Source of the DNA: Escherichia coli
GTDB taxonomy: Bacteria; Pseudomonadota; Gammaproteobacteria; Enterobacterales; Enterobacteriaceae
Length of the DNA: 64,000 nt
NCBI RefSeq assembly: GCF_044647545.1
Contig: NZ_CP172818.1
Direction: 5' to 3' (one strand)
Shown piece by piece: positions 1,443-52,434 of the stretch. The position numbers and the translations under genes were made by a program. The first letter of the stretch is position 1. The number at the start of each line of letters is the position of its first letter. Under the pieces are notes generated by a model. The model was not told the DNA's origin and made no database searches. It worked only from the letters and a program-made list of their open reading frames with translations.

Positions 1443-1533
1443 GGCGATCTTTATTCCTTGTAAAAGTCCCGTCAGGACCGGATTTTCAACGAATTCTCAC
1501 GACAGAAAATTCTCTTCGGATTGTGGTTGTAGT

Positions 1534-1569
1534 GTCGGATGCGCCGCGAAGGCGGCTTATCCGACCTAC
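1534..1569. repeat. REP-like palindromic unit in nuoM-nuoL spacer
   Basis: gtcggatgcgccgcgaaggcggcttatccgacctac, imperfect GC-rich palindrome of REP type in a 165-bp intergenic gap. Confidence 0.5.
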
Positions 1570-1607
1570 GTTCTTATATGCCCAGGGGCAAGCCCACAAT
1601 CCTTAAC

Positions 1608-17189: not shown

Positions 17190-17216
17190 CACTGCCGGAG
17201 ATTGCATCCGGCAGTG
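17190..17216 (+). terminator. Hairpin downstream of alaA (possible terminator)
   Basis: Perfect 10-bp stem cactgccgga/tccggcagtg with 7-nt loop; weak U tract. Confidence 0.4.
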
Positions 17217-17863: not shown

Positions 17864-17878
17864 GCAGCTGGAGTCTGC

Positions 17879-17909
17879 GTCGCATCAGGCAATAAGCGCC
17901 GGATGCGAC
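17879..17909. repeat. REP-like hairpin between convergent yfbR and yfbS
   Basis: gtcgcatc ... gatgcgac inverted repeat with GC-rich loop. Confidence 0.4.
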
Positions 17910-17921
17910 ATCAGCCTCTTG

Positions 17922-38678: not shown

Positions 38679-39167
38679 TTACGCTCTGGGCAAGAAACTT
38701 GACGAGCTTTGCAGATAATCAAAAAACCATCTGATGATAAAACTGAACTGCGGGATCAGCTGTGATTTGCTCCAGTCTTCGCTTTTCGACACCCCGGTAA
38801 AGGAGTCGAGAAAGAAGAGAATGGCAGCAACAATCAACACACCGCGCAACGCACCGAAACAGACGCCCAACACCCGATCGGTGCCTGACAACCCCGTTTT
38901 CTCCACCAACTGGCCTATCACGAAGTTCACGATAGCACCAACGATCAGGGTAGCGATAAACAGTACCGCGATGGCAATCCCATTTCGAACCAGTTCGTCT
39001 TCAAAGCCCGTAAACCAGACTGACAGGTAAGTGTAGTAATGACTGGCAACAAAGAAAGCACAACCCCATGTCACCAGCGATAACGCTTCACGAACAAAGC
39101 CGCGGATCAGGCTAACCAGAGAGGAAAAAGCAATCACCGCGATTATGGCGTAATCAATCCAGACCAT
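38679..39167 (-). CDS. cvpA: Colicin V production membrane protein
   Basis: 162-aa hydrophobic ORF upstream of purF. Confidence 0.9.
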   Translation of the reverse strand: MVWIDYAIIAVIAFSSLVSLIRGFVREALSLVTWGCAFFVASHYYTYLSVWFTGFEDELVRNGIAIAVLFIATLIVGAIVNFVIGQLVEKTGLSGTDRVLGVCFGALRGVLIVAAILFFLDSFTGVSKSEDWSKSQLIPQFSFIIRWFFDYLQSSSSFLPRA

Positions 39168-39331
39168 ATGTGTCCCACGATTTTACGCCCTGTCATCCTG
39201 TTCGGGGCGCATTCTAACAGAAAAAGAAAACGTTTGCGTAGGGATTTCCTTCCCACGCATCAATAAAAATGGCGCTGAAAAAATATTCAACGCCATCGAC
39301 TTTTTATGCCTTTGCGGCATCGGGCAATGCG

Positions 39332-39393
39332 TGTCGGATGCGGCGTGAACGCCTTATCTGTACCAGATAAGACGCGTTAGTATCGCATCAGGC
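39332..39393. repeat. REP/BIME-like element in cvpA-dedD spacer
   Basis: tgtcggatgcggcgtgaacgccttatctg followed by inverted copy cagataagacgcgttagtatcgcatcaggc. Confidence 0.5.
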
Positions 39394-39402
39394 AAGACCA
39401 TA

Positions 39403-40071
39403 TTAATTCGGTGTATAACCCATTACCACGCCGCTTAAGCCAGAAAGTTGCTTCAACTCACCCAGCGAACCTTTCAGCTTATCTTTCGAGGCATCCGGCC
39501 CAACCAGAATACGGGTAATTTTACCCTGCACTGGCGTGGATGGCGACGTATAAACCCGATAACCGGCACCGCGCAGCTTACCGACAATCTCATTCACTTT
39601 ATCGGCATTTTTCAGCGCCCCCAGTTGTACAACATAGGCTTTACCCGTTGGCGCTGCTTTTTCTTCCACGACCGGCTTCGGCGCAGGTGGTGCTTCAACC
39701 TTCGGTTTCGGCGGCTCCACCGGTTTCGGCTTCGGTGGGGCGACCGGTGCAGGTTCCGGTTCAAACTCGGTGTTATTGGCTGCAATAGTGGCCGGATCGA
39801 GCGACGGTGCTGCGGCATCACCTGCCCGCACCTCTTCCGCTGCGCCTTCCGGCGGCTGCGTCGGCAACGCCTGAGTGGCGGCTGGCATCATATCAGGCTC
39901 ATCGCGATCGCCCGCTTTCGGCACCAGCGGGATAGCCGCGAACTCATCCTGATAATGTTTTTTCTGCCCGTCCAGCAGCCCTGGAAGTACTATCACCCCC
40001 AGCGCCACCAGCACGATCGTGCCCACTAACCGATTCTGAAACTTACTTGCCACCGCTTCTCCTCGCGTCAA
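39403..40071 (-). CDS. dedD: Cell-division protein with SPOR domain
   Basis: ORF of 222 codons; N-terminal TM helix, Pro/Ala-rich linker (PKPKPVEPPKPKVEAPPAPKP), C-terminal SPOR-like domain; exact start uncertain. Confidence 0.88.
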   Translation of the reverse strand: MTRGEAVASKFQNRLVGTIVLVALGVIVLPGLLDGQKKHYQDEFAAIPLVPKAGDRDEPDMMPAATQALPTQPPEGAAEEVRAGDAAAPSLDPATIAANNTEFEPEPAPVAPPKPKPVEPPKPKVEAPPAPKPVVEEKAAPTGKAYVVQLGALKNADKVNEIVGKLRGAGYRVYTSPSTPVQGKITRILVGPDASKDKLKGSLGELKQLSGLSGVVMGYTPN

Positions 40072-48675: not shown

Positions 48676-48720
48676 TTTGCGTTAGTGCCGGAGGCCGCAT
48701 TGGTGCGTAACCACTCCGAA

Positions 48721-52106: not shown

Positions 52107-52124
52107 TCTGCTCTGGCATTGCTT

Positions 52125-52153
52125 GCCGGATATGGCGTGAACGCCGCATCCGG
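52125..52153. repeat. REP-like hairpin between convergent mnmC and yfcL
   Basis: gccggatatggcgtgaacgccgcatccggac, imperfect palindrome. Confidence 0.4.
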
Positions 52154-52155
52154 AC

Positions 52156-52434
52156 TTACTGCTGTGAGGCCTGCTGAAACAGGTGTTCCCACATATCGGT
52201 TACCAGCGCCTGGTCACGCGGTGACAATTCACCCGCGCCAATGGCTTTTTCCAGACTCTGGCTAACGGTCGTATGTACCGCCTGGGCGGAGTGGTCCTCA
52301 CCACTTTCCAGTTCTGCGATGGCTAATGTCAGGTGGCCACGCAAATACCCACTGGCAAACAACTCATCATCACTGGCATGGTCAACCATACCGTCGATTA
52401 ATGCCAGAATGCGTGATTCAAACTCCGCGATCAT
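52156..52434 (-). CDS. yfcL: Small conserved protein YfcL
   Basis: 92-aa ORF, last gene of the aroC operon. Confidence 0.85.

Follow-up and report, generated by a model that had tools for sequence, protein, structure and literature searches.

The DNA analysed here (64 kb, called the window below) is a segment of the E. coli chromosome that extends from nuoM to the yfc fimbrial genes and corresponds to about 2.391-2.455 Mb of K-12. Its genes are arranged in the order nuoM, the nuo operon, ackA-pta, the his transporter genes, purF-cvpA-dedD-folC, fabB, mnmC and the yfc genes. Over the stretches tested, strain ST648, FDAARGOS_497 and related isolates are 100% identical to the window, whose lineage reads as ST648-like. 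No examined genome is identical throughout: the window and FDAARGOS_497 differ by a 6-bp indel at 52154 and over a segment at 57421-59674. Gene coordinates were taken from the PGAP annotation of FDAARGOS_497, which is near-identical, and from the window's own open reading frames.

Four GC-rich palindromes are present in the window, in the nuoL-nuoM (1533-1569), yfbR-yfbS (17877-17909), dedD-cvpA (39332-39394) and mnmC-yfcL (52125-52154) spacers, each within 1-2 nt of where the original prediction had placed a REP-like element. All four are extragenic by annotation and open reading frames, being in a 3' UTR or intercistronic and 2-38 nt off a stop codon. REP sequences, whose palindromic units in E. 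coli are classed as Y, Z1 and Z2, were reportedly described by Higgins in 1982, by Gilson and Bachellier, and by Ton-Hoang in 2012. REPs and BIMEs are well-known repeats of E. coli; the palindromes and their biology are already known and the finding is an ordinary one.

Membership in the REP/BIME family

Every position of the window was scored on both strands by its edit distance to the consensus of Y (35 nt), Z2 (37 nt) and Z1 (30 nt). These consensus sequences are validated by the K-12 copies at these loci, which are 0-3 edits away. The null consisted of 100 Markov-simulated sequences of 64 kb, in which the best match was 9 edits for Y and 10 for Z2, and the median 11. The unit with its head at 39332 is the closest to consensus (5 edits to Y), followed by those with heads at 52124 and 52154 (6 and 7 edits to Y), 1533 (7 edits to Y) and 39394 (7 edits to Z2). 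These units thus resemble the Y or Z consensus beyond chance (5-7 edits, against a null minimum of 9-10). The unit with its head at 17891 is best matched by Z2 at 11 edits, which is the null median and therefore chance level. The consensus scan, which the original prediction had named as its check, accordingly supports four of the five units, but 17877-17909 fails full-length scoring. Over the whole 64 kb, on both strands, no REP besides the four palindromes beats the null, so that the list drawn up earlier is complete by this measure.

Databases and literature were less informative. At Rfam gathering thresholds, the sole match in the window is the nuoG RNA motif. None of the elements attains the gathering score of RF02564 (59.5; the best scores are 24.9, 23.1 and 20.7 bits), but RF02564 (naRNA4) is a model of a specific pair and canonical K-12 BIMEs also fall below its threshold, so its scores are used here in a relative sense only. 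The resemblance of the elements to naRNA4, the Y/Z2 pair of REP325, is confined to weak partial matches of 21-25 bits. The RefSeq annotation of NC_000913.3, as retrieved, has no REP features; K-12 REP names and coordinates were taken from the supplement of bioRxiv 10.64898/2026.03.23.713779 (the preprint supplement below). Allele counts refer to 5,426 complete genomes and are treated as lower bounds. The literature searched had nothing relevant on a REP at nuoL/nuoM, and the RepRanger supplements did not include these genes.

The window elements share several features with canonical E. coli REPs: they are extragenic, just past stop codons, and related to an imperfect palindrome, and GTAG is present at 1566-1569. 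The AA/GC internal mismatch of a self-folding unit is seen at 1533-1569, is altered at 52125-52153, and is formed by neither unit at 39332-39394. The K-12 orthologues of three loci in the interval are named REP168, REP170 and REP171 in the preprint supplement, of which REP170 is missing from the window. They differ from canonical REPs in that three of the four have lost GTAG and one stem arm, and in that the element at 52125 reads equally on both strands, as a chimera of two heads. GTAG is carried only by 1533-1569; neither GTAG nor CTAC occurs within or beside 17877-17909, 39332-39394 or 52125-52154, whereas the K-12 orthologues of the latter two do carry GTAG.

The element between the convergent genes yfbR and yfbS (17877..17909, no strand assigned) consists of a pair of REP head halves turned toward one another (GCGTCGCATCAGGCA / GCGCCGGATGCGAC), and is the equivalent of K-12 REP168 in the preprint supplement. 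Within the element the window is identical to K-12, and the 58-nt spacer differs at two flanking positions. Positions 17877-17891 match the 3' end (head) of Z2 exactly over 15 nt, a match expected about 1e-4 times in the window by simple arithmetic. The predicted hairpin has a free energy of -20.1/-23.7 kcal/mol with z = -4.1/-4.5 (17872-17915). The element is an older head-to-head REP remnant common to the window and K-12.

The palindromes could in principle be chance GC-rich sequences, or ordinary intrinsic terminators unrelated to REPs. The full-length score of 17877-17909 and the failure of every element to attain the RF02564 gathering score would be in keeping with such an origin. However, four of the five units lie well outside the consensus-distance null, canonical REPs occupy the orthologous K-12 loci, the 15-mer at 17877-17891 is an exact Z2 head, and inspection by eye found no T-run after any of the four hairpins, as would be needed for a U-tract in the transcript. 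An origin unrelated to REPs is therefore extremely improbable. We are confident, short of certainty, in assigning the four palindromes to the E. coli REP/BIME family, as Y- and Z2-type copies or relics, with any role that they retain most likely played as RNA hairpins. The earlier attribution of all four to this family thus stands in that they belong to it or derive from it, but a complete REP is found only at 1533-1569.

Collapsed pairs at dedD-cvpA and mnmC-yfcL

The dedD-cvpA element (39332-39394) comprises a Y remnant on the (-) strand and an inverted Z2 remnant on the (+) strand, in the alternating orientation of BIME-2. At the same site K-12 has both units joined tail to tail: an inverted Y (…CTTATCCGACCTAC) is separated by a 14-bp linker from a Z2 (GTAGGCCTGATAAG…) identical to the consensus. 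Alignment to K-12 indicates that what is left of the window's Y unit (39332..39358) comprises head, loop and a portion of the tail arm, while its tail and GTAG are deleted, and that the Z2-type remnant (39366..39394) is also without tail or GTAG. Between them, a TGTACCA junction (39359..39365) stands in for about 30 bp of K-12, namely both tails and the linker. The net loss is about 23 bp at the centre, including both GTAG/CTAC tails and the linker, so that no complete palindromic unit is left and neither REP hairpin can form. Instead, the two units of the window RNA pair only with each other in the predicted fold, a single long hairpin with imperfect pairing whose central stem of 12 bp is new; the junction supplies the loop region of a perfect 8-bp palindrome, CTTATCTG/CAGATAAG, that is likewise new. 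The Z2 remnant has four GC>AT transitions relative to K-12 in its now-unpaired centre. The minimum free energy is -23.7 kcal/mol in the window (z = -2.6, 39328-39398) versus -45.9 in K-12 (z = -4.2), so that the remnant has about half the stability of the K-12 element. Likewise, in searches of equal size, the K-12 element scores 38 bits against RF02564, versus 20.7 for the Y remnant (its positions 4-29, the weak partial match of 21 bits at 39335-39360) and 16.3 for the Z2 remnant.

The original prediction had described 39332-39393 as a two-unit BIME-like element. The Y and Z2 remnants are indeed present, but this is not a working BIME: the centre is deleted, GTAG is gone and neither REP hairpin folds. 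The main correction to the prediction is that the element is a collapsed, GTAG-less relic confined to a minor lineage. A palindrome that looks like a REP can thus be a non-folding relic without GTAG, and REP calls should check for GTAG and the hairpin beyond likeness of sequence.

The window allele is found in 133 of the 5,426 genomes, in all of them with 100% identity. At least 4,644 have the full K-12-type junction, among them O157:H7, ATCC 25922 (a B2 strain) and K-12 itself. Because the full junction predominates to this extent, the collapsed allele is clearly the derived one, as judged from these sequences. Copy number varies at this array of BIME-2 type: K-12 and L65 have a single Y-Z2 unit, ATCC 25922 and EC5931 three or more. 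Deriving the window allele takes deletions of 19 bp, 1 bp and 2 bp and a T>A change; none of the full alleles observed yields it by one clean deletion at a microhomology. A template switch at the quasi-palindrome would be a plausible cause.

On the (-) strand, the dedD stop codon (39405-39403) is followed after 8 nt by the REP remnant, then by a small hairpin and by a terminator-like hairpin with a U-tract (39297..39268), which is downstream of the remnant and upstream of the cvpA control region. A terminator scan over 39100-39500 called only this last hairpin (39268..39297, (-) strand; 12 pairs, tail TTTATTGATG), which is also seen when the entire 3' UTR is folded, and did not call the REP remnant. 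Ahead of cvpA, the sequence ACGCAAACGTTTTCTT at 39239..39224 is what we take to be a match to the PurR operator, and a promoter scan called no promoter near it or cvpA. The remnant thus belongs to the 3' UTR of folC-dedD and is closely followed by a conventional terminator, and it is probably this terminator, not the REP remnant, that does the terminating here. Since a real terminator follows, and since the number of units that strains tolerate ranges from half to three, the remnant is probably near-neutral. It may nevertheless affect translation termination of dedD, as it starts 8 nt past the stop codon.

The element between the convergent genes mnmC and yfcL (52125..52154, no strand assigned) has collapsed in a like manner, into one chimeric hairpin. 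It starts 20 nt past the mnmC stop codon and ends 2 nt before that of yfcL. The K-12 element at this site, REP171 in the preprint supplement, has Y and Z2 units joined by a 9-bp linker. By three-way alignment, the window retains a single hairpin, GCCGGATATGGCGTGAACGCCGCATCCGG, whose left half comes from the inverted Y and whose right half is a REP head. Its distances to Y on the two strands, 6 and 7 edits, are nearly equal. The hairpin is predicted at about -18 kcal/mol with a 1x1 mismatch (z = -3.5/-4.1, 52118-52158), and its RF02564 score is 24.9 bits (52126-52153). Of the 5,426 genomes, about 244 share the collapsed allele, and at least 4,773 have the full BIME. The window carries an additional 6-bp deletion, which no complete genome matches exactly.

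At both dedD-cvpA and mnmC-yfcL the likeness to BIME-2 is in the inverted, tail-to-tail Y and Z2, and the difference is that both window pairs are without the tail-to-tail centre and have no complete palindromic unit left. Both 39332-39394 and 52125-52153 began as an inverted Y-Z2 pair, tail to tail, and lineage-specific central deletions took both GTAG tails and the linker from each.

BIME-2 (Y-Z2) arrays are targets of gyrase and BIME-1 binds IHF, and the elements might therefore act mainly as DNA, as sites of binding or cleavage by gyrase, IHF, Pol I or HU that serve supercoiling domains or the nucleoid. The dedD-cvpA locus, an array of BIME-2 type with one to at least three units by strain, suits such a function. 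However, the window alleles are without linker and tails, and a copy number at dedD-cvpA that ranges from half a unit to at least three units argues against a strict requirement. Moreover, the model element REP325 gave no measurable nucleoid compaction and no REP-REP contacts (bioRxiv 10.64898/2026.03.23.713779). A primary role at the DNA level thus appears quite unlikely, and we favor hairpins that act, where they still act, in RNA.

REP content, rayT and the remaining hairpins

One K-12 REP is absent altogether from the window. In the yfcJ-fabB spacer, pairwise alignment shows an empty site at 48710..48711 where K-12 has a 33-bp REP, which is REP170 in the preprint supplement. Over the interval of the window, K-12 has six GTAG-bearing units and the window one. 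When the adjacent 50 kb of K-12 and of strain ST648 are added (about 115 kb in total), the tally is 11 versus 4; the three units in the adjacent 50 kb of strain ST648 include a near-perfect Y and Z2 at nrdA-nrdB. Of the five K-12 REP loci in the interval of the window, three differ in the window, an indication that REP content at orthologous sites varies much among E. coli lineages. Such variation agrees with published proposals in which much intergenic polymorphism stems from BIMEs and REP populations dwindle once the transposase is lost.

In K-12, rayT lies between yafL and lfhA with REPs on its flanks. In strain ST648, a relative of the window genome, rayT is absent from this canonical locus, where the spacer consists of 97 bp of unrelated sequence. 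The empty yafL-lfhA junction is found in 127 genomes, and at least eight strains among the matches listed have it together with either the collapsed dedD-cvpA allele or a 100% match to the window there. The REPIN/RAYT system, and with it the notion of REP singlets as decaying REPINs, is said to have been worked out by Bertels and Rainey, by Park in 2021 and in RAREFAN. The window resembles that system in having inverted REP doublets that decayed to immobile remnants, in the loss of rayT from its usual locus in the same lineage, and in having fewer GTAG units than K-12. It differs in the path of decay, which here is deletion of the doublet centre to give a chimeric hairpin and not loss of one whole REP.

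Published work gives this resemblance a basis. GTAG is essential for the E. coli TnpA-REP, with no mutation tolerated (PMC8266576); in E. coli, REPINs are reported to decay after RAYT is lost (bioRxiv 10.1101/2022.05.22.493013), and REP singlets are regarded as remnants of decaying REPINs (PMC8049555). Three of the four elements, being without GTAG, should then no longer be substrates of the REP transposase, and since the closest complete genomes have no rayT where it is normally found, the best reading of the elements is as fossils undergoing decay. The window thus fits the known pattern of REP erosion without the transposase, and the connection to rayT loss is best described as an association. 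Indeed, megablast detected rayT in 3,575 of the 5,426 genomes, fewer than the at least 4,644 with the full dedD-cvpA BIME, so many genomes without rayT keep full BIMEs and rayT loss is not sufficient for collapse.

These observations also bear on whether the elements might be active non-autonomous transposons (REPINs), still moved by the REP-associated tyrosine transposase. In favor of this, GTAG and a good hairpin are both retained at nuoL-nuoM, and intact Y/Z2 pairs persist at nrdA-nrdB in strain ST648. On the other hand, three of the four lack the GTAG that is indispensable to the E. coli enzyme, rayT and its flanking REPs are gone from yafL-lfhA in the closest genomes, and every allele is at the same orthologous site as in K-12. 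Continuing mobility is accordingly very improbable.

The functions of the window hairpins would have to be carried over from K-12 or from genome-wide averages. The hairpins that remain may serve as local RNA structures, in 3' UTRs or between cistrons, that impede 3'-to-5' exonucleases, and may promote partial termination, often Rho-assisted or bidirectional. In K-12, REP168 (yfbR/yfbS) and REP171 (mnmC/yfcL) are inside mapped bidirectional terminators, and REP171 overlaps a Rho-dependent signal (bioRxiv 10.64898/2026.03.23.713779, Table S16 for the terminators). The same study places 78 REPs within bidirectional terminators of convergent genes, and finds REP325 to be a partly Rho-dependent terminator as well as a stabilizer of the upstream mRNA (bioRxiv 10.64898/2026.03.23.713779). 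By analogy, the yfbR-yfbS and mnmC-yfcL hairpins are probably still weak bidirectional terminators or barriers to decay. The REP171 derivative of the window differs from the REP-type bidirectional terminators in being a single hairpin of about -18 kcal/mol, versus the -23.9 listed for the K-12 Z2 hairpin. The dedD-cvpA and nuoL-nuoM REPs were not found in those K-12 terminator tables of the preprint supplement that were searched. In tandem gene pairs that contain a REP, the ratio of upstream to downstream expression is higher (median log ratio 0.96 versus -0.09). Counting against the RNA-role reading, terminal REPs have no general effect on half-life (bioRxiv 10.64898/2026.03.23.713779). Terminating ribosomes can stall when a REP is located within 15 nt of the stop codon, according to PMC12306157, which cites Liang et al. 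2015. The significance of the elements past careful annotation is small, their K-12 equivalents being already catalogued.

The intact REP between nuoL and nuoM

The only intact, GTAG-bearing REP of the four is at 1533..1569 on the (-) strand. It is closest to Y, with a 13-nt centre (7 edits, against a null minimum of 9 for Y), and on the transcribed (-) strand it reads GTAG-GTCGGATAAG-CCGCCTTCGCGGC-GCATCCGACA, its GTAG being at 1569..1566. It begins 38 nt past the nuoL stop codon (1608-1610, (-) strand) and ends 90 nt ahead of the nuoM start (1442, (-) strand), and these gene coordinates confirm the predicted location within the nuo operon, between nuoM and nuoL. Its RNA is predicted to form a hairpin of -27.4 kcal/mol with a 2x2 AA/GC internal loop (z = -6.6, 1528-1574), and against RF02564 it gives a weak partial match (1529-1566, 23 bits). 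K-12 and ATCC 25922 (a B2 strain) keep the REP, differing by one or two substitutions. The spacer was detected in at least 4,698 of the 5,426 complete genomes and its flanks in 5,423, a gap on account of which the allele counts are treated as lower bounds.

Beyond E. coli the spacer is highly variable. One genome per species was scanned for the nuoM N-terminus, which gave 115 usable nuoL-nuoM spacers from as many species of Enterobacterales, ranging from 18 to 295 nt. Spacers of 18-27 nt, unstructured, occur in Providencia, Proteus, Yersinia and Pluralibacter. Enterobacter, C. werkmanii and Atlantibacter have a spacer of 76 nt, with only the conserved nuoM-proximal core and no REP. In E. coli, K. 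oxytoca, C. koseri, Citrobacter sp. R56 and Superficieibacter, the nuoL stop codon is followed by a module in which an inverted repeat, GGATTGTGG…CCACAATCC, surrounds species-specific REPs, either single or as a tail-to-tail pair. K. oxytoca, C. koseri and Citrobacter sp. R56 have GTAG REPs of their own species type, and Superficieibacter has a similar palindrome without GTAG. Salmonella arizonae, C. youngae and Kosakonia carry an unrelated ERIC-like element of about 145 nt. The spacer thus reads as a hot spot for small structured repeats, and a length that varies from 18 to 295 nt implies that a REP there is not a general requirement.

The original prediction had drawn attention to this REP as one that might modulate subunit ratios, which is possible but unsupported. 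As an explanation, the REP would be a selected element of the nuo mRNA that stabilizes the upstream nuoA-L segment or attenuates transcription into nuoMN, and so adjusts subunit ratios. The REP is intact, folds strongly and is kept in phylogroups A and B2 and in the window lineage; REPs or a palindrome of other genera occupy the same position, all within the shared outer inverted repeat, and tandem pairs with a REP are on average biased toward upstream expression. Against this, the subunits of complex I are needed 1:1. Several genera manage with REP-free spacers of 18-27 or 76 nt, and S. arizonae, C. youngae and E. coli TR01 have an ERIC-like element instead of the REP. In K-12, long-read data show transcripts that run from nuoG through nuoN and end at a terminator beyond nuoN, so that the REP does not block read-through. 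We regard a selected role in nuo expression as unlikely. If the role were real, the REP would provide a modest, testable case of within-operon regulation, tuning the expression of complex I subunits.

The inverted repeat around the REP raises a further possibility. In the minimum free energy fold of the whole spacer, a 9-bp outer stem encloses the REP, its 5' arm being at 1594..1602 (GGAUUGUGG in the mRNA) and its 3' arm at 1518..1526 (CCACAAUCC), both on the (-) strand. The GGAUUGUGG/CCACAAUCC stem is directly past the nuoL stop codon in Escherichia, Klebsiella, Citrobacter and Superficieibacter, and its apical part may have been refilled repeatedly by each species' own REP type. Over seven sequences, 91% of cells are paired, with one clean compensatory change in a manual alignment. 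The covariation is not significant, however, as 230 of 500 shuffles pair as well, which also tells against the regulatory role considered above; a conserved structure is not claimed, since the pairing is no better than in shuffled controls. It is accordingly rather improbable that the REP tips a larger cross-genus RNA structure, with the composite as the selected feature, and that, separately, the two BIME collapses represent a specific decay route in a rayT-less lineage, by template switching or deletion at the palindrome centre. If such a composite did exist at nuo, it could be a barrier to processing or decay that sets the expression of the distal nuoMN.

Within E. coli, the ERIC-like element replaces the nuoL-nuoM REP in one genome, O157:H7 TR01. 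The idea that O157:H7 generally has a different spacer was rejected, the replacement being private to TR01.

Repeats in the nuoL-nuoM spacer

The spacer between nuoL and nuoM, which in the window spans 1443-1607, ranges in length from 18 to 295 nt among 115 Enterobacterales species (loci L009-L128). It is a hot spot where small structured repeats occur: REPs particular to each species, paired REPs, and an ERIC-like element (about 145 nt). Within the Enterobacteriaceae, broad conservation of the spacer is confined to its nuoM-proximal core, GAATTCGTTGAAAATC…AAGGAATAAAGATCGCC. Within E. coli, the REP module has been replaced by a 143-bp ERIC-like element in one of 5,426 complete genomes, that of O157:H7 strain TR01 (locus L007, 244-386); allele counts are treated as lower bounds, given that megablast with the 165-nt REP-containing spacer recovered 4,699 genomes, as against 5,423 with its 43-44-nt flanks. 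A copy with 100% identity to the TR01 element sits at a different locus in other E. coli genomes, and in Salmonella arizonae and C. youngae the nuoL-nuoM site is occupied by a similar element.

The nuo REP (1533-1569) is enclosed by a 9-bp inverted repeat (1518-1526 and 1594-1602), whose arms match perfectly in the window but only imperfectly in K-12. The same inverted repeat also flanks REPs in K. oxytoca, C. koseri, Citrobacter sp. R56, and Superficieibacter. A compensatory change in the repeat is seen in Superficieibacter; covariation across seven sequences was not significant. Elsewhere in the operon, the nuoF-nuoG spacer contains the Rfam nuoG RNA motif (RF01748; 8576-8618, minus strand); it scores 48 bits, where the gathering threshold is 33.

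Strain variation at dedD-cvpA

The copy number of the BIME in the dedD-cvpA spacer differs by strain: comparison of the EC5931 and ATCC 25922 loci (L130 and L131) with locus L001 gave at least three Y-Z2 units in B2-type strains, and one in K-12 and L65. In several strains the GTAG tetranucleotide of Z2 is changed to ACAG or CCAG. Between the REP remnant of the window (39332-39394) and the cvpA control region is a hairpin resembling an intrinsic terminator (39268-39297, minus strand). Adjoining this hairpin is the 16-mer ACGCAAACGTTTTCTT (39224-39239), a putative match to the PurR operator. A promoter scan called no sigma-70 site near 39224-39297.

A deletion and missing elements at other loci

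At the collapsed mnmC-yfcL allele, the window carries a 6-bp deletion (CACATT) at 52154, which is private when compared with every complete genome having that allele. The deletion shortens the mnmC-yfcL hairpin (52125-52153), leaving 2 nt between it and the stop codon of yfcL. In the yfcJ-fabB spacer, REP170 of K-12 (33 bp) is absent, leaving an empty site at 48710/48711. The closest relatives of the window also have a yafL-lfhA locus without rayT and its flanking REPs, as seen when the spacer of strain ST648 (L134, 31350-31446) is compared with that of K-12 (L132, 463-1358). This rayT-less junction is common to 127 genomes, and by megablast rayT is present in only 3,575 of the 5,426 complete E. 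coli genomes.

The alaA-yfbR hairpin and the yfcO region

The alaA-yfbR spacer holds a perfect 10-bp hairpin, CACTGCCGGA…TCCGGCAGTG (17190-17216), that includes the REP head motif GCATCCGGCA. It fails REP scoring; an ordinary 3' hairpin is the probable explanation.

Positions 57421-59674 are collinear with K-12 smrB-yfcO-yfcP at 94% identity. In FDAARGOS_497, otherwise the closest genome, an AAA-ATPase gene has been inserted at this site, accompanied by a hypothetical gene, and the fimbrial allele is divergent. The yfcO gene may be disrupted in the window, because only a 134-codon ORF is found there, compared with 273 codons in K-12.
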